A stretch of DNA of 64,000 bases from a virus, in the IMG/VR virus record IMGVR_UViG_3300010938_000009, positions 32,001 through 96,000 of that record, one strand, 5' to 3'. Made by a program: the position numbers and the translations under genes. Positions 30,894 to 59,222 of this stretch are shown here, piece by piece (within the stretch, counting starts at the first letter, position 1; each line of letters opens with the position of its first letter). Below the pieces are notes generated by a model. That model searched no databases. It worked only from the letters and a program-made list of their open reading frames with translations, and had not been told where the DNA came from.

Positions 30894-33290
30894 TTACTTC
30901 CTTTTCTGCACTTCTACTTTAGTTTTAGCTCCCCAATCATACTGCACTTTACAGTTAGGTAATAAAGCCCATAATACAGGGTATTTAGGTTTTTTTAGCT
31001 CATTACCTTCAAAGTTCATACCATCAGTAAAGTAAATTAAACCGTCTATTTCTAAGTCTTTACACTTATCAAATACAGGTTTAAATGCAGTACCACCTCT
31101 ACCTTTAAACTCAAACTTATGTTTAGGATCAAATTCTCCTATCCATTGAATTTTAGCATCACAAGCTATTAAAGTAATTTTAACGTCATCTCTATGTATT
31201 CTATCTACTTCCGCCATAAATTGATTTAAACACTCTGTATCAACTGAACCTGATTCGTCAATAGCTACTGCTAAGTGTAGTTTAGGATAAACTTTAGTTC
31301 CTGGAAAAATAATACCATAACGTCTATTTCTAGCTTTTCTTGAGGACTCAATAACTATTTCTGCTGTTTTAGCTACAAACCTTTGTAAGTCTTGTTTCCA
31401 GTTTTTAGGTTTATAATTAAGCCTATTAATAGCTTCAAGTATATCTCCAGGTAAATTACCTATACCGCCACTTTGTTCTACAGATTTATTAATTATAGAC
31501 TTTACCTTTTCAGTAACATATTCTTCATCGGGATTACCTTCAGCCCATAAACTATGATCATCAATTATTATAACTCCTTGTCCACCGCTTTGATTACCAT
31601 CTTTACTTTCTTCTTGCTTAAGAAATTCATAGTAATATTCCATATTTTGCCTATGTTCTATTCTAGGTATTTCTTTCTTTAAGTCTTCTACTAAACAAGG
31701 TCTACCTTCCATTGGTTTACCTGCATCTAGACTAGGATTAGGTATTTTATTACCATCTTTATCCATTATTTCAGTAGGATGACGCATTACATTACCTTCT
31801 TTATCAAACATTTGTAGTTTTTTAGGTAAATTAGGTAAATATTCATTAATAGCATAATCTGCGGCTCTGTTTAATCTATTAGCATCAAACATACTTTTAA
31901 TTTTATCAATTAAAGGTTTATCTTTTTCTAACATATTAGGTTCAAGGAAATTAAACCTGTGAAAGTGATTCATCATTACATGATAACAATTGTGTACAAG
32001 AGTTTTATTTGCAAAAAAATTATGATTATCAGCTACAGTAATATCATACAATTGTGATCTTACAAACTTTTTATTTTTTACAGAAATTATCTTTTTTGCT
32101 GAAAATTCTAAAAAGTTTGTATTAAGTTTTTTAGAATTTAATTTATTATAATATTTTTCAGAAATTTTATATTTCATGCTATTATGAATATAAGGTGCTA
32201 TTAAAGCAAATAATTTATTTGTAGCTTCTTTTTTTAATTTAATATTAAATAAATGTGGTTTTCCAGATCTTTGTTTAATTTCTGATCTTAAACCAAATTT
32301 ATTTTTTAAAGTTTTTACAATAAGTTTTTGTTCTTCCAAAGAAAAACCTTCCGTATGAAAAAAAGAAGAACCATAATTATTCCAACTTCCATCATCCATA
32401 AACCAAAAAGCTAAAGCTACAGTATCTAAATTTTTCATTAAAAACTTAATATTTTTTTTGTTTTTAATATAAACTAATTCTCTTAGTTTTTTTGTTTGCT
32501 CATTAGTGCCATGATTGATCCTTAAATTAGAGTATTCATTTTTATAATCGCTCCAACTATTTACAATTTTTCCACCTAATATAGAATGTTTATATTCTAT
32601 ATAATCTTTATGAATTTTGCTTCCAGTAGAAGAAAATTGACCTGTAGAATTAATACAAGAATCTCCCAATAAACAACCGATAATTACACTTAATTGATCT
32701 TTATTGAATAAAGGTCTTTCTTTGTTTCTTTGTCTATCTATATCTATTTTTCTAATACTATATAAATTTTTAGCTTTTTCCGCTTCAATATACTCTATTT
32801 TTGGATTAAATATATCTCTAGTTACAGCTATTTTATGATCATTCGTACAAACTACTGAAGAGTATAAATAAGGACTTTTAGCATATTTCAAACTTACCCA
32901 TCGTTTATTAGGATAATCTTTAATAGGTTTTTTAGAATAACCTATTACTGGTTTATATTCTAATTTTCCTTTTTTAGATAAAGATAGAACATTTACTTTA
33001 AGTTTATTTTCTACTATTTCTCCAATAGTAATATCTCCTTTATCTGTTTTTACTAATACGTTTTTAGCTACACATTCATGCTTTAAAACGTCTACTTGCT
33101 CTGTTAATGACATACTTTTCCAAAAGAAAGGGTTAACATACAGATTTACATTATCTGTAACATTAACTCCCAAAGTTGGTACATCAGTAGTATAAGTTCT
33201 AGTCATATTTAATATTAAATTAGCAAAAAAGGGTTCTTTTTTAATTAACTCTGTTATCGCTACTTCTATTAAATTTGCATGGTTACTCAT
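30894..33290 (-). CDS. Metallopeptidase-VWA (DUF2201-type) protein, intein-containing
   Basis: HE|CYH after splicing, N.AAD.AIN, DDH..W, VAIDESGS, GRGGT.F, YFTDG. Confidence 0.88.
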   Translation of the reverse strand: MSNHANLIEVAITELIKKEPFFANLILNMTRTYTTDVPTLGVNVTDNVNLYVNPFFWKSMSLTEQVDVLKHECVAKNVLVKTDKGDITIGEIVENKLKVNVLSLSKKGKLEYKPVIGYSKKPIKDYPNKRWVSLKYAKSPYLYSSVVCTNDHKIAVTRDIFNPKIEYIEAEKAKNLYSIRKIDIDRQRNKERPLFNKDQLSVIIGCLLGDSCINSTGQFSSTGSKIHKDYIEYKHSILGGKIVNSWSDYKNEYSNLRINHGTNEQTKKLRELVYIKNKKNIKFLMKNLDTVALAFWFMDDGSWNNYGSSFFHTEGFSLEEQKLIVKTLKNKFGLRSEIKQRSGKPHLFNIKLKKEATNKLFALIAPYIHNSMKYKISEKYYNKLNSKKLNTNFLEFSAKKIISVKNKKFVRSQLYDITVADNHNFFANKTLVHNCYHVMMNHFHRFNFLEPNMLEKDKPLIDKIKSMFDANRLNRAADYAINEYLPNLPKKLQMFDKEGNVMRHPTEIMDKDGNKIPNPSLDAGKPMEGRPCLVEDLKKEIPRIEHRQNMEYYYEFLKQEESKDGNQSGGQGVIIIDDHSLWAEGNPDEEYVTEKVKSIINKSVEQSGGIGNLPGDILEAINRLNYKPKNWKQDLQRFVAKTAEIVIESSRKARNRRYGIIFPGTKVYPKLHLAVAIDESGSVDTECLNQFMAEVDRIHRDDVKITLIACDAKIQWIGEFDPKHKFEFKGRGGTAFKPVFDKCKDLEIDGLIYFTDGMNFEGNELKKPKYPVLWALLPNCKVQYDWGAKTKVEVQKRK
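31989..33074 (-). mobile_element. Intein (362 aa) with LAGLIDADG endonuclease, inserted in the HExxH motif
   Basis: LKHE|CVAKN...CTNDHK...GCLLGDS...WFMDDG...LYDITV.DNHNFFA..TLVHN|CYH. Confidence 0.9.
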
Positions 33291-50780: not shown

Positions 50781-52382
50781 ATGCAAGTTCAATATAATAC
50801 AGAAGGTAAACCTTTAAGAATAAATGAACTCGACATAGAAGGTTTAGCTAAATGGTTATATGAAAATAAAGTTAGAACGACTCAAGGTAAATTATATCAA
50901 CCATTACATAAGGGACATTTAGAAGTTTTAAAAGATCCAGCTAGATTCAAAGTTTTAGCTTGCGGTAGAAGATGGGGGAAAACTTTATTAACTTCTTTAA
51001 TGGCTTTAGCTGTTCTGTTTCAAATGAACAGAAGAGTTTGGATTATTGGCCCAGATTATTCTTTGTGTGAAAAGGTTTTTAGAGAACTTTATAGCATTTT
51101 AGTATTACAATTGAAGATTATAGTTCCTGGAAAAAAAGGACGTGCTCGGAACCAAAAAGGGGATTATTACTTAGAAACTCCTTGGGGAAGCATATTAGAA
51201 GCTAAATCAATGGAGAATCCTGACAGTTTAGCAGGAGAAGCGAACGACCTAATTATTATAGATGAAGCAGCTCTTACAACTAATTTAGAAAATATATGGG
51301 TGCAAATGCTAAATCCGACGTTAATGGATAAAGAAGGTTCAGCAATTTTTATTTCTACACCACGAGGTAAAAATAATTTTTATAAACTATTTTTATTTGG
51401 TGAAAAAGGTAAACGACAAAGAGAGGGTAAACTTAAAATAACCATAGATCCAGAAACAGGCATTAATAACGATATGACTGAATGGAGTAGTTTTCAGAGA
51501 ACTAGTTACGATAACCCTTTGTTAGCAGCTACGCCAGAAAAATCTAAAAGTGAAATTGATGCTGCTTATAGACGCTCTATAATGTCTGGTAAAATAGTCA
51601 TGTTTAAACAAGAATACTTAGCAGATTTTGAATCAGTTTCTGACAGTTGTTTTCCAGGTTTTAACGTAGAAGCTACTGAAAAAATACAATATCCTAATGT
51701 AATAGATTATAATTGGCACCCTGATGAAGGCCCAATTTACTCAGCTTGCGATCATAACTTTGCTAAACCAGCAAGTACTATATTCGCTCAAGTAAATCAA
51801 TTTGGAGACGTAGTAATATTTGATGAATATTTTACACCACATACAACCTCCTACATGCAAGCCCAACAAATAGTAGACAAAGAAAGAGAACTTACAAGAA
51901 GAGCTATAAAAATTTGGGACGACGAAGCACAATTATTAAAAAATAGAAGACATATAAAATTTGAAGAAATAATAGCAGATATTTCAGGAGATCAAGTACA
52001 ACTACATGGTAGAGCAGCTTGGGATGATTTTGAAGCAGTTTTAGGTAGAAGACCAAAAGGTTTAGCTCAAAATAGAGAAACAGGTTGTAATATGATAAGA
52101 CTTTGGTTACAATTTCCAAAGTTTGATCAAAAAGGACAGCCAGTATTCGACAAAAACAACGAACAAGAAACTTACCCTAAATTATTTGTTTCTAGTAATT
52201 GTACTAATTTAATTTACGCTTTAAGTACTGCTAAGTTCAAAAAAGGAAACGGCGGCAACTTAAAAGAAGATTATGAAGAAACTCCAGAAGGTTACGAAGG
52301 TTTAATTGATGCTTTACGTTATTTAATAGTATACTTATTTCACAATAAGGGTAATTACGTAGAAGTTTACAAAGGATTTTAA
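50781..52382 (+). CDS. terL: Terminase large subunit
   Basis: CGRRWGKT Walker A, IIIDEAA Walker B, ISTPRG.N.FY, F.QEYLADF, C-terminal DALRY. Confidence 0.93.
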   Translation: MQVQYNTEGKPLRINELDIEGLAKWLYENKVRTTQGKLYQPLHKGHLEVLKDPARFKVLACGRRWGKTLLTSLMALAVLFQMNRRVWIIGPDYSLCEKVFRELYSILVLQLKIIVPGKKGRARNQKGDYYLETPWGSILEAKSMENPDSLAGEANDLIIIDEAALTTNLENIWVQMLNPTLMDKEGSAIFISTPRGKNNFYKLFLFGEKGKRQREGKLKITIDPETGINNDMTEWSSFQRTSYDNPLLAATPEKSKSEIDAAYRRSIMSGKIVMFKQEYLADFESVSDSCFPGFNVEATEKIQYPNVIDYNWHPDEGPIYSACDHNFAKPASTIFAQVNQFGDVVIFDEYFTPHTTSYMQAQQIVDKERELTRRAIKIWDDEAQLLKNRRHIKFEEIIADISGDQVQLHGRAAWDDFEAVLGRRPKGLAQNRETGCNMIRLWLQFPKFDQKGQPVFDKNNEQETYPKLFVSSNCTNLIYALSTAKFKKGNGGNLKEDYEETPEGYEGLIDALRYLIVYLFHNKGNYVEVYKGF

Positions 52383-53466: not shown

Positions 53467-53534
53467 CCTCATAATAAGATACACGATGGACAGTAGAGCT
53501 GTTCGACCTGTTCCTTGAGAGGAAAGGAGGAAAA

Positions 53535-56500
53535 TTGAGTTTTAACCTAGGCGTGTCTAATCATCCAACGAGTAGATTAGGCGGATTAAGTTCTGTAGGG
53601 ATTTATCTTTACGAAGATATTTACTATAGACAGTGGATCAGTGAGATCGCCTTGGCCTTTTATGAAGGTGAATATATCGGCCTTCGCTTTAAGTAATTAA
53701 AGAGTTATGATGCGACAAGACGAATTAAGATAAGTTCGTCGGTAACGAAAGTTACAAAAATAATATAAATAACCACAAAATGTTATCTGGTTAGACTTAG
53801 AGTAAGACAGTTTCGTAATCCTGAGAAAATTTAAAAACTGTTTACTGAGTCTCTAAAATGGGGTGAATTGCTGGAAACTCCTAAAACTCACATAGCTACA
53901 AAGTAAATCGAAAGATTAAGCTTGACATGCTAGAGAATATGTGAGATACTCCTTAAAAGGTGTAATGGATAATCAGCAGCTAAGCGTAGTAGGGTTTAAG
54001 TTACTGCGAAAGTTCAACGACTAGAAGGTGAGTCCCAACAATAAGTCCTTCCTGAGAGTGCCCGATCCTGACCGAGTAAAGTCGAAGGATAAGATATAGT
54101 CTACTCCTATTTGAAAAAAGAGGTATATGATTAACGTAAAAAAATTAAAAAGTTCCGAATTAGATTCCGCCATATATGGTATGATTCTAGGTGATGGATG
54201 TATACAAATGGCTAGTTCTGGAAAAGGAAATAGCAATTTAAAAATAGGACATTCAATAAAACAAGAAGAGTATTTAAAATGGAAACAAGAGATTGTAAAT
54301 CAAATTGGAACGGTAAAAACTAGATTTTGGTATTATCAAAAACAAAACGCTTGTTATATAGAAACCAACACTAGAAACTACTTTACTAAATTAGAAAAAA
54401 TATTTTATATTAACAGAAAAAAAACTATTAATAAAAAAATATTGAATAAATTAACAGATTTATCTTTAGCTATATGGTTTTTAGATAATGGTTATATGAG
54501 TTATAATAAATCTGGTTCTGTTTACGGAGAACTCTGTACAGATCAATTTAGTTTAGAAAAAGTACAATTAATAAAAGATTGGTTTAAAATTAAATTTAAT
54601 ATGGAAGTTGGTATTAGAACTTTACGATATTTAAGCGGCAAACAAAAAGATACTATAGCTTATAGAATAAAGTTTAACAAAGAAAACTGTATTAAATTAA
54701 CAGAAATAATTAAACCTTATGTTAATCAAGTGAGTTGTATGCACTATAAATTATACGAGAATAAAATTGCTTCTCAGGCAGTAGAGAAATCTTCTGTGCA
54801 AAAATCTGTTATTGAAGCAACAGATACTACCACTTAATCTTACTAAAGAGATTATAGATGAAACCTCTATACTATATAGAGAAGATCCTATATATCAAGT
54901 AGTAGATGATAAGGGTAAGATATTAAAAAAAGATCAAGAATTATGGGAGCAAATCCAAAAGGATTCTCGCTACTTGACCTTTATGGACAAACTTGATAGA
55001 TGGGTACGACTACTAGGTACCGTACTAGTTAAAGTTTCTTTTGTAGATCCGCAGACTGGACTACTAGTAGATAAAAATAAAGAAGGTACTGTACAACTGG
55101 ATATGCTACATGGCGGCGTATACGATATAAGACATGGAGCTTCTCCCTACTATATTACAGAATTACTTATAGGTTTTGGCACTAAATTTGGAGGATTCAG
55201 AGAAAGATCTGGAACTCAAATTATAGGCGGATCACTTACAGGTAAATTACCTGATCCTAGTAGTATGGGGCAAGCCGACATAAAAACACGACAACGAATT
55301 GATTCTCCAGGACAATTAGGTTCAGTTAATAGAATTTATTGGAGTGCTCACTCACATTACGTTGAGGACGAAGATAGTAAGTATTACGAAACTAAAAATC
55401 CTTATGGAATAATTCCTGCTGTGCCGTTTTTTAATCAAGACCCAGCTCACTATTACTTTTTACCAATTAATGAACCTCTTATTTACGCTAATCATGCGAC
55501 TAATATGAGGATTACAGATTTGAATCATATTGCTAAGTTTCAATCGTTTGGAGTACCTGTAGTAAGTGGTATCGAAAGACCTACTTCACTAAGACAAGGT
55601 AGACCTGTAGACGATTTTAACGTATTAAAAGGTGGTACAGCTCAATCTAGATTTGGTGGAATTAGTGGTTTTGGAGCTAACGGACAATTTAGAACCTTTG
55701 ACCAAGGTTTAGGAGTAACAAGAGATGGAAACGCTGATGCTAATGCATTAGGTTTTTCTATTGGACCTGATACTGCTATAGCTGTTGGAGAAAAAGGGGA
55801 TTTTAGATTTGAACACCCTTCTGCAGATATTACAGGCTTAATTAAGGTTATACATAGTATAACTGATATGGTTAGAATTAACCACGGATTAAGACCTAAA
55901 TATGAAAATACATTACCTTCATCAGGTTTTGCATTATTAATGGAGAAGATTGGTGTTATAGAAAATAATATTAGAAGAGGTAAACTCTTTAAAGAAAGAG
56001 AAGAACAACTTTTCAATGTTATTAAGAATTTGTGGAATGTACATCATAATAAATCAGGAAGTAAAAGGTTTTCTGAAAAAGCTAAGTTAATTATAACTTA
56101 CGTTAATCCTAAATTTCCAGTTGACCCTAAAACTGAAAAAGAAGATATTATGATGGAAAGTAAAATAGTAGAAACTGGAGACAGAGCTGCTATTAAAAGA
56201 ATGTATCCACACATAAAAGAACCAGAAATAGATAAATTAATTATACAAGCAAGAAAAGATAAAGAAGAAAGATCCTTATTTGAAGCTGAACTTCAAGCCA
56301 AGGTTACTGAGATTATAGGACCTAAAGAAGATCCTAAAAATCCTGGAGCTAAACATAAATATTTAAGAAAATCTAAAGAAGCAGAAAGCGACAAAGAAAC
56401 TTATATTTATGAAGACGAAGACGGAAAAGAAAAAGAAGTCAAAAGATTAGATAAGAGTAAGGAAAAACTAGGTAAGCCTAAGATCGATAATAAAGCAAAA

Positions 56501-56563
56501 CACGCTGAAGAAAGTTCTAAGCAACCTGGTAAAAATGGTGATCCAAGAAGAAAAGAGGAGTAA
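53535..56563 (+). CDS. Portal protein, predicted spliced: join(53535-53669, 53713-53725, 53783-53798, 53801-53825, 54815-56563), 645 aa
   Basis: AGGAGG SD plus TTG at 53535; joined frame reads ...LAFYEG-RQDEF-IWLDL-VRQFRNPE-KQQILPLNLTKEIIDETS..., NPYGIIP, SGFAL; lies between TerL and scaffold. Confidence 0.8.
53670..53712 (+). ncRNA. Core-less group I-type mini-intron 1 (43 nt)
   Basis: P1 GAAGGU/GCCUUC ending in U.G; P10 CGA/UCG; CUUUAA-GUAA-UUAAAG hairpin; ends in G. Confidence 0.7.
53726..53782 (+). ncRNA. Core-less group I-type mini-intron 2 (57 nt)
   Basis: P1 GACGAAU/GUUCGUC ending in U.G; P10 UUAUCU/AGAUAA; GUAAC-GAAA-GUUAC hairpin; ends in G. Confidence 0.75.
53826..54814 (+). mobile_element. 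Group I intron (IA-like core) carrying a LAGLIDADG ORF
   Basis: P AAUUGCUGGAAA 53866-77, Q AAUCAGCAGC 53971-80, R GUUCAACGACUA 54012-23, S AAGAUAUAGUC 54091-101; P7 GACUA/UAGUC; exact ends inferred. Confidence 0.88.
54127..54837 (+). CDS. Intron-encoded LAGLIDADG homing endonuclease or maturase
   Basis: IYGMILGDG, HS.KQ.EYL.WK, LAIWFLDNG, CTD.FS, M.YK. Confidence 0.88.
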   Translation: MINVKKLKSSELDSAIYGMILGDGCIQMASSGKGNSNLKIGHSIKQEEYLKWKQEIVNQIGTVKTRFWYYQKQNACYIETNTRNYFTKLEKIFYINRKKTINKKILNKLTDLSLAIWFLDNGYMSYNKSGSVYGELCTDQFSLEKVQLIKDWFKIKFNMEVGIRTLRYLSGKQKDTIAYRIKFNKENCIKLTEIIKPYVNQVSCMHYKLYENKIASQAVEKSSVQKSVIEATDTTT

Positions 56564-57899: not shown

Positions 57900-59222
57900 A
57901 TGGCTCAAGTAATTTCATTATCCGATGCAGCGAAACTTTCTAACAACATGCTTGTTGAAGGTATTATCGCAGACATCATTTCAATAGATGATTGGTTCAA
58001 ATACCTTCCTTTCGTAGTTTTCGAGGGGTTGGCTTACACGTTCACTAGAGAGGCTACTCTTGCTGCGGCAGATTTCGCTTCCCCAGGAACTAACTTAAAT
58101 CAATCAAAATACCAAGCTGGAGCTTCTTTCCAGAATGTAAACGTAAATTTATCTGCTATCATTGCAGATATTATCATCGACGGTCAAATTGAAGATCAAT
58201 TCAGCGAGACTAACGATCAATTACAAGTTCAAATTAGCTCAAAAGCTAAACAACTTGCACGTATTTACATGAATGCTATCATCAATGCTAAAAGATCTGC
58301 TTCTCTTACTCAGAGTAACAATGGTCCTATAGGTATTGCTGACAGATTTCACGGAATGGCTTCTATTTTAGATGCTGAATCAGGAAATGTTGATGATGTA
58401 AATCATCCATTTTACAATGCTGGTAATCCTACTCAAACAGAAGTACTAGTTGAAGACGACCCTTCTTCTCCTCGAAACGGGAAGAATGGTAGAGTTTTTA
58501 CTCTAGAAGATCTGGATGCTCTAATCGATAGAGTAACTGTAGGTCGTCCTGATTTTATCATGATGCATTCACGAGATATCCGAACACTAAGAGTTTTGAT
58601 GAGAAACACTGGTGGCGGTACAGATGCATACATGCTACAACAACAAGGTCTTGGTAACATGAAGCCTATGCTTTATTATCAAGATATTCCAGTTTTCAGA
58701 AATGATTTCATTTCTAAATCTGATCCAGTAAACAGTACTGTACATACTATCTCTTCTGTTACAGATGCTAATACTATCGTACTAAGTTCTGCTACTGCTG
58801 CTGATGCAGAACACCTTCTTCTTAGAGGGTCTGATGGCGTTAATTATAGATATGCTATTGCTTCAGGTGCCGGAACTGCTACTATTGACGTAGCTTCTGT
58901 TTCTGGTTCTTTCTTTGATCCGGAGCAAAATAAACAAGTAGCTCGACAAGCTCTTAACACTGCAGGATTATTTCTTGCTGGCGCTCAAGCTATCTCTGCT
59001 GAAAGAATTGATGGATCTTCCATCTATTGTGGATGTTGGGGAGAGTTTAAAGGGGTTGTAGGTTTTACTTCTGCTAACAACGCAGGATTGAAACTTGAGT
59101 ACGTAGGTCCTCGTGAGAACGAAAACGCTTACCAATATCGTATGAAATGGTATTGTGGATTTGACTTATACAATCGTTTAGCTTTAGCGAGAATTAAAGA
59201 AGCATTACCACTTGGTGCGTAA
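57900..59222 (+). CDS. Major capsid protein (HK97-like)
   Basis: LSDAAKL...L..GII, LPF...EG.AY...RE.TL, F.G, LEDLD.LID.V...PD, YRMKWYCG; AAGGAG SD; downstream terminator. Confidence 0.85.
   Translation: MAQVISLSDAAKLSNNMLVEGIIADIISIDDWFKYLPFVVFEGLAYTFTREATLAAADFASPGTNLNQSKYQAGASFQNVNVNLSAIIADIIIDGQIEDQFSETNDQLQVQISSKAKQLARIYMNAIINAKRSASLTQSNNGPIGIADRFHGMASILDAESGNVDDVNHPFYNAGNPTQTEVLVEDDPSSPRNGKNGRVFTLEDLDALIDRVTVGRPDFIMMHSRDIRTLRVLMRNTGGGTDAYMLQQQGLGNMKPMLYYQDIPVFRNDFISKSDPVNSTVHTISSVTDANTIVLSSATAADAEHLLLRGSDGVNYRYAIASGAGTATIDVASVSGSFFDPEQNKQVARQALNTAGLFLAGAQAISAERIDGSSIYCGCWGEFKGVVGFTSANNAGLKLEYVGPRENENAYQYRMKWYCGFDLYNRLALARIKEALPLGA

Follow-up and report, generated by a model that had tools for sequence, protein, structure and literature searches.

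The analysed stretch of DNA, in the following called the window, comprises 64,000 nucleotides (nt; positions 32,001 to 96,000 of IMG/VR virus record IMGVR_UViG_3300010938_000009) and belongs to a complete phage genome of 104,283 bp with terminal repeats. It contains a portal gene, placed between the genes for the large terminase and the major head protein, whose coding sequence is divided over five exons. Exons 1 to 3 are separated by two mini-introns without a catalytic core of their own, and exons 4 and 5 by a large group I intron. Between exons 3 and 4, only the dinucleotide AG (53799-53800) is left over. This dinucleotide is probably a micro-intron, which is excised from the portal RNA by the ribozyme of the adjacent large intron via a guide located just upstream of the catalytic core. 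The parts of the locus that are relevant for this assignment are the following (coordinates refer to the window):

53535..53669, plus strand: portal exon 1; TTG start after AAGGAGG; ends with ...AFYEG; matches residues 1-45 of all homologues
53713..53725, plus strand: exon 2; cga caa gac gaa t, which corresponds to RQDE plus 1 nt
53783..53798, plus strand: exon 3; tt atc tgg tta gac tt, which corresponds to FIWLDL minus one base; the last six bases AGACUU (53793-98) are the 5' strand of P1
53799..53800, plus strand: putative AG micro-intron; absent from all homologues; preceded by U53798 (U.G pair); its last base, G53800, is the candidate terminal guanosine (omega-G)
53801..53825, plus strand: exon 4; a gta aga cag ttt cgt aat cct gag, which corresponds to VRQFRNPE; the first 13 bases are the exon strand of P10
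53835..53852, plus strand: guide (internal guide sequence, IGS) of the core; P10 part AAACUGU-UUACU (53835-46), P1 part GAGUCU (53847-52)
53859..54123, plus strand: group I catalytic core (P3-P9); Rfam RF00028, 57.7 bits versus a gathering score of 50
54815..56563, plus strand: portal exon 5; KQQILP... to the stop codon

For the open reading frame (ORF) 54812-56563, hundreds of homologues with a length of about 620-650 amino acids (aa) each were found. Their N-termini contain the near-invariant stretch MSFNLG...AFYEGRQDEF[IV]WLDLVRQFRNPEKQQILP. Joining of 53535-669, 53713-725, 53783-798, 53801-825 and 54815-56563 yields a single frame of 645 aa, whose N-terminus agrees with the family consensus ...AFYEGRQDEFIWLDLVRQFRNPEKQQILP. 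Two other gene models were rejected. A portal start at TTG 54812 is not preceded by a ribosome-binding site and would sacrifice 63 conserved residues. A canonical 5' splice at U53798 straight to exon 5 breaks the frame and leaves out the conserved VRQFRNPE. No relatives of the portal gene were found in annotated phage records.

If AG 53799-800 is kept, the frame reads ...WLDLE*, and if it is removed, the frame reads LDLVRQFRNPE. AG is therefore a real surplus of two bases in comparison to every relative, as its removal restores the consensus frame and its retention leads to a stop. Two nucleotides can be deleted from the sequence AGAG in three equivalent ways; only the deletion of 53799-800 concerns a dinucleotide that both follows a U and ends in G.

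The exon ends on both sides of this dinucleotide can pair with one guide. P1 is formed by AGACUU (53793-98) and GAGUCU (53847-52) and consists of 6 bp with the terminal pair U53798.G53847. P10 is formed by AGUAA (53801-05) and the adjoining guide bases UUACU (53842-46), and is extended by ACAGUUU (53807-13), which pairs with AAACUGU (53835-41). The whole P10 comprises 12 pairs and one bulged G, and AG is positioned between the exon strands of P1 and P10. The distance between the 3' end of the guide and P3 of the group I core is 7 nt; guide and core follow 35-60 nt downstream of AG on the same transcript. In order to determine the frequency of such arrangements, U-N-G sites were combined with downstream guides within 120 nt that form a P1 of 6 or more bp with a terminal U.G pair and a P10 of 5 or more bp. 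A suitable guide exists for 5 of the 3174 sites in the window (0.16%). Note that the AG site had been chosen independently of this pairing test, by means of the frame break. In the minimum-energy fold, AG itself pairs with C53845 and U53846 (AGACUUAG with CUGAGUCU). An extension of P1 into the intron is usual. The pairs between AG and the guide and those of P10 compete for identical guide bases.

A first-pass annotation had proposed that a guide downstream of exon 4 and just before the core directs the removal of AG and thereby corrects the frame. The pairings and coordinates that it gave for 53793-53852 agree with the sequence, the two readings of the frame were confirmed by translation of the joined exons and by the homologues, and the guide is indeed located immediately 5' of P3. 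Its further proposal, the excision of AG by means of the core's own IGS, is supported by the U.G pair at the 5' edge, the G at the 3' edge, the presence of P1 and P10 on one guide, and a core that is intact and covaries. In an alignment of eight introns (this core and seven related ones), 36 of the 67 predicted pairs keep pairing despite changes on both sides. No second group I core was found in the 104,283-bp genome. In annotated phage records, the intron core has only a 76-nt match, to Staphylococcus phages, and a scan with the core motif yielded about 80 unrelated phage introns. A default scan of the whole window missed the group I intron (53805-54123) despite its above-threshold score; it was found with more permissive filters. 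Default scans will therefore under-count such group I introns.

Two independent sequence data sets cover the site. The first one, X1, is apparently a DNA run and originates from the rhizosphere and a separate study. A contig of 151 nt covers 53728-53879 and contains both mini-intron 2 and AG; the latter is flanked by more than 70 nt in either direction. Compared to the window, it has one single-nucleotide polymorphism (SNP) and a 1-nt deletion in P3. The dinucleotide repeat AGAG and the origin of the window from a metagenome assembly might suggest that AG is a spurious repeat, caused by an assembly or sequencing error. The independent X1 contig, which spans the site with AG, shows that AG is not an assembly artefact, and we regard such an error as extremely improbable. 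The first-pass annotation had named an assembly insertion as a refutation of its proposal, and X1 speaks against such an insertion. Furthermore, the AG allele persists in a diverged strain. The deletion in P3 concerns the GGGG run at 53860 (start of P3); the X1 strain lacks one G and has GGG, as do most related introns.

The second data set, X2, is a wastewater library designated 'RNA-Seq cDNA', which an analysis tool flags as 'RNA? (probably DNA)'. It contains a contig of 257 nt with a depth of 8.9, which consists of 53492-53669, CGACAAGACGAAT (exon 2), and 53783-53848 minus two bases at 53799. AG and both mini-introns are thus missing, and the borders are exactly as predicted, in a run that may hold DNA. 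The first 23 nt of the large intron (53826-48) are retained. The contig would thus resemble a partly processed transcript, in which the core is still in place and has removed the small elements first. The loss of AG from cDNA, which the first-pass annotation had named as a check, would be visible in this contig of a cDNA library if the run is indeed RNA.

The X2 contig could also be the DNA of a healthy relative, AG then being a genomic frameshift in a defective or decaying allele from which nothing is excised. This explanation is consistent with the flag of the run and with the residual 23 nt of the large intron, and metagenome assemblies can capture defective genomes. However, both the window and X1, which are independent of each other and distinguished by SNPs, contain AG, and AG sits in an essential single-copy gene of a complete genome with terminal repeats. 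Moreover, X2 differs from the window by three precise deletions, yet its exons 2 and 3 (29 nt) agree with the window letter by letter, whereas family members differ at about one quarter of such positions. An ancestral intron-less DNA allele is therefore considered unlikely for X2. A related locus, L189, shows the same design independently (see below). Taken together, a defective allele is quite unlikely.

For a comparison, sixty related portal loci from IMG/VR (designated by L numbers) and one metagenome locus were used. Most of these loci are uninterrupted. Full canonical introns are located after AFYEG in L004, L006 and L014, and elsewhere in L035 and L058; that of L035 has a length of 301 nt and lacks an ORF. 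The intron type of the window, located near the junction NPE/K, occurs in seven non-redundant lineages (window, L012, L025, L026, L020, L042, L189). In all seven, the bases immediately 5' of P3 form pairs with the preceding exon (VRQF codons). This pairing tracks synonymous codon differences, and the helix covaries in L026 (GUUCGUCAAU with AUUGACGAAC), L042 (GUACGUCAGUUC with GAGUUGACGUAC), L020, and L189.

L189 carries an insert of its own in this helix. It consists of the 6 nt AAAAUG (capitals in gat ctc gt AAAATG a cgt caa ttt), and the in-frame reading is LDLVK*RQF. Removal of the insert leads to LDLVRQF and the consensus N-terminus. The insert follows a U that is paired to G (P1: AUCUCGU with GCGAGAU) and ends in G; P10 is formed by GUCAAU and AUUGAC of the same guide, just before P3. 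The insertion site is located along the same helix, 3 nt downstream of the AG site of the window, and the guide sequence is different. L189 is therefore an independent case of the same design.

The two inserts also bear on a translational explanation, namely ribosomal recoding at UUA GAG UAA by a -1 or +2 frameshift or a short bypass. The stop codon UAA (53803-05) follows immediately, as it does at some recoding sites. However, the sequence uua gac uua gag uaa contains neither a slippery heptamer nor matching take-off and landing codons, and a -1 shift would add a residue that is found in no homologue. The insert of L189, with its 6 nt and in-frame UGA, would require a different recoding event. 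In addition, the edges of the mini-introns lack matched codons, and the bases are physically missing from the X2 contig. Recoding is thus very improbable. In contrast, one ribozyme rule accounts for both the frameshift in the window and the in-frame stop in L189, for which translation would need different tricks.

Besides AG, the portal transcript contains further intervening elements. These and the neighbouring genes are:

50781-52382: large terminase gene
53670..53712, plus strand: core-less mini-intron 1 (43 nt); P1 GAAGGU 53664-69 with GCCUUC 53680-85; U.G at the splice site; GUAA-capped hairpin; ends in G53712
53726..53782, plus strand: core-less mini-intron 2 (57 nt); P1 GACGAAU 53719-25 with GUUCGUC 53734-40 (U.G); P10 of 6 bp; GAAA-capped hairpin 53743-55; ends in G53782
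53826..54814, plus strand: large intron 4 (989 nt); ends in G54814
54127..54837, plus strand: intron-encoded LAGLIDADG endonuclease ORF; PF03161, E = 8e-34
54767..54796, plus strand: second guide of the large intron; UUGCUU.CUCAGG (54767-78) pairs with the last bases of exon 4 and the first bases of exon 5; GAAA-capped hairpin 54779-96
57900-59222: major head protein gene

Mini-intron 1 occupies the site at which L004, L006 and L014 carry their full introns of about 900 nt and L020 carries a mini-intron of 35 nt. For mini-intron 2, the folding energy corresponds to z = -3.1. Three mini-introns were identified in related loci, each with a P1 ending in U.G and a terminal G:

L020, 2439-2473: 35 nt, after AFYEG
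L026, about 2372-2407: 36 nt, after cag tgg at
L189, 1715-1748, minus strand: 34 nt, after cag tgg at

Core-less mini-introns are confined to genes with the NPE/K intron type (4 of 7 lineages versus 0 of 36; Fisher p = 2.8e-4).

The large intron has a different guide for its own splicing. Its second guide forms a P1' and a P10' of 6 bp each in the window and was found again in six of seven relatives; L020 and L042 have the U.G pair and a P10' of 10 bp. It is located past the endonuclease ORF and 30-45 nt upstream of the terminal G of the intron; a GNRA hairpin and a short linker separate it from this G. The P1-P2 domain is thus located downstream of the core. In the window, L026, L012, L189 and L025, the last base of the 5' exon is G or A instead of a U.G-paired U. 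In L020 and L042, the 5' splice site of the large intron is located 3 nt upstream and is canonical. An explanation of the 3' element UUCUCAGG by a local hairpin alone was rejected, as the element pairs with both exon ends and this pairing covaries. A protein search with the endonuclease yielded no loci beyond those already collected.

Another explanation also retains excision at the RNA level. AG might be removed by group I chemistry with a different docking or by a core acting in trans (from a second transcript or an excised intron), while the helix between exons 3 and 4 and the guide only tethers the exons. In agreement with this idea, the main intron is spliced with another guide, located towards its 3' end, the mini-introns must already rely on a core that is not their own, and the helix is present in L026, L020, L042 and L012, which lack an insert. 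Against it, in the window as well as in L189 the insert is placed directly behind a U.G pair of the helix and has G as its last base, and no other guide for the AG junction was found within 120 nt. We consider a pure tether unlikely.

Several observations weigh against excision of AG via this guide. Due to the presence of the helix in the four insert-free relatives, complementarity alone is not specific to excision. The AU-rich helix between exon and guide is, taken alone, no more stable than shuffled sequence (z = -1.1). The AG guide lacks an adjacent P2, whereas the canonical relative L035 has one. Micro-introns are represented by two cases only, the window and L189. The evidence from X2 consists of the one contig with its modest depth; the run is flagged as probably DNA, and strain (3 SNPs) and sample differ from those of X1. 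Among the X2 contigs, neither an exon 4-exon 5 joint nor coverage of exon 5 was found. That the X2 molecules are RNA products and that the core 53859-54123 is the catalyst is what we infer.

Further searches did not add to the number of cases. Near-identical strains were not detected in viral or metagenome contigs with the pattern of exon 3 and exon 4 separated by 0-2 extra bases, and the combination of FRNP and core had no match in prokaryote genome contigs. None of the RNA runs was certain to be RNA; the best ones contained 9-18% of the sampled words, and no reads of the raw-read run X4 matched. In L042 (3487-3506), the portal frame is shifted by one extra base just past the 3' splice site (caa caa att ctg A ccc att). 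This base could be due to a single-G micro-intron (CU-G-ACCC), for which only a guide match at chance level was found, or it may be a sequencing error. In addition, short predicted proteins from other assemblies (P0121-P0129) have a portal N-terminus that is broken at additional positions, namely after FR, YLYED or RQWI; P0125 contains a stop-free insert of 12 residues.

The arrangement of exons, guide and core suggests the following course of excision. The guide 5' of P3 would pair with the end of exon 3 as P1, and the wobble pair U53798.G53847 would mark the cut. In the precursor, AG would lengthen the P1 helix by two pairs. After attack of a guanosine behind U53798, G53800 would enter the guanosine site as omega-G, and exon 4 (AGUAA, ACAGUUU) would pair with the guide as P10. 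The 3' OH of exon 3 would then attack behind G53800, which would join exon 3 in frame to A53801 of exon 4. P10 should direct this second step to A53801 and not to exon 5, for which the AG guide offers no match. The attack of the guanosine, the binding of G53800 and the ligation to A53801 are steps that we infer from the pairing pattern.

Most likely, the same core also serves the two mini-introns, which possess P1-P2 modules of their own, and the large intron through its second guide. We slightly favour the more general view that this one core is a multi-substrate, guide-directed RNA repair enzyme, which clears a single essential mRNA of AG, of two mini-introns and of itself. As to its origin, AG could be all that is left of a decayed intron, or it may have arisen as a tandem AG duplication, which the phage tolerates owing to its excision by the ribozyme.

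If this interpretation is correct, AG with its 2 nt (6 nt in the relative L189) would be the smallest known natural intron, and a single catalytic core could serve several guides. Selfish introns could then shrink from full length via mini- to micro-introns without killing the host gene. Frameshifts and in-frame stops beside group I introns of phages or organelles would then not have to be errors or pseudogenes. If the principle is general, small frame-breaking inserts could persist in phage genomes whenever they are preceded by the U.G pair of a guide helix and their last base is G. Natural excision ribozymes acting in cis could also inform the design of RNA repair.

Other systems likewise neutralise inserts that break a frame at the level of DNA. 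In mitochondria of kinetoplastids, uridines are deleted by a protein editosome under the direction of guide RNAs, and in T4 gene 60, the ribosome bypasses an insert during translation. AG would share with both the neutralisation of a frame-breaking DNA insert after transcription, by base-pair guidance or skipping. In contrast, machinery and chemistry are unrelated, and neither matched codons nor editing features are present at AG. In intron-rich crAss-like phages, frameshifts and stops were left unexplained and attributed to 'unknown expression mechanisms' (Yutin et al., PMC7886860). If excision of the AG type is general, it is a candidate explanation for these breaks. In literature searches, neither natural micro-introns nor core-less phage introns were found to be described.

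With ordinary phage group I introns (RF00028), the element of the window shares the core family, the logic of P1, U.G pair, omega-G and P10, and a guide directly 5' of P3. Unlike these introns, AG has a length of 2 nt and no core between its own splice sites; the core is located past the next exon and is removed by a separate splice with a second guide. Natural group I introns stripped of most of the core are known from fungal small-subunit ribosomal DNA (Phialophora PaSSU type) and comprise 56-81 nt (PMC3160393). These keep P1, P7 and P10 and are reported to splice alone in vitro (PMC3160393), whereas AG is too short to form any of these elements, retains only the terminal G and needs its neighbour.

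The reaction proposed here resembles trans-excision-splicing (TES), which likewise requires a P1 guide (RE1) pairing with a 5' exon that ends in U, a P10 (RE3) with the 3' exon, and a bridge ending in G (PMC2532722). In TES, two transesterifications rejoin the flanks, and the bridge may be as short as one nucleotide (PMC2532722). A single G suffices as the excised segment for engineered group I ribozymes of Pneumocystis, Tetrahymena and Candida, which follow the same rules for P1, P10 and the terminal G (PMC2532722). TES takes place in the laboratory and between separate molecules, whereas ribozyme, guide and substrate of the window belong to one natural transcript. Furthermore, the P1 loop encloses an exon of 25 nt, and the gene that the reaction would repair is an essential phage gene. 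If confirmed, AG excision would be the first natural counterpart of engineered TES, with a ribozyme that mends a frameshift in such a gene. AG works like a group I intron or like a TES substrate and is, for want of a core of its own and due to the reaction in cis, a strict member of neither class.
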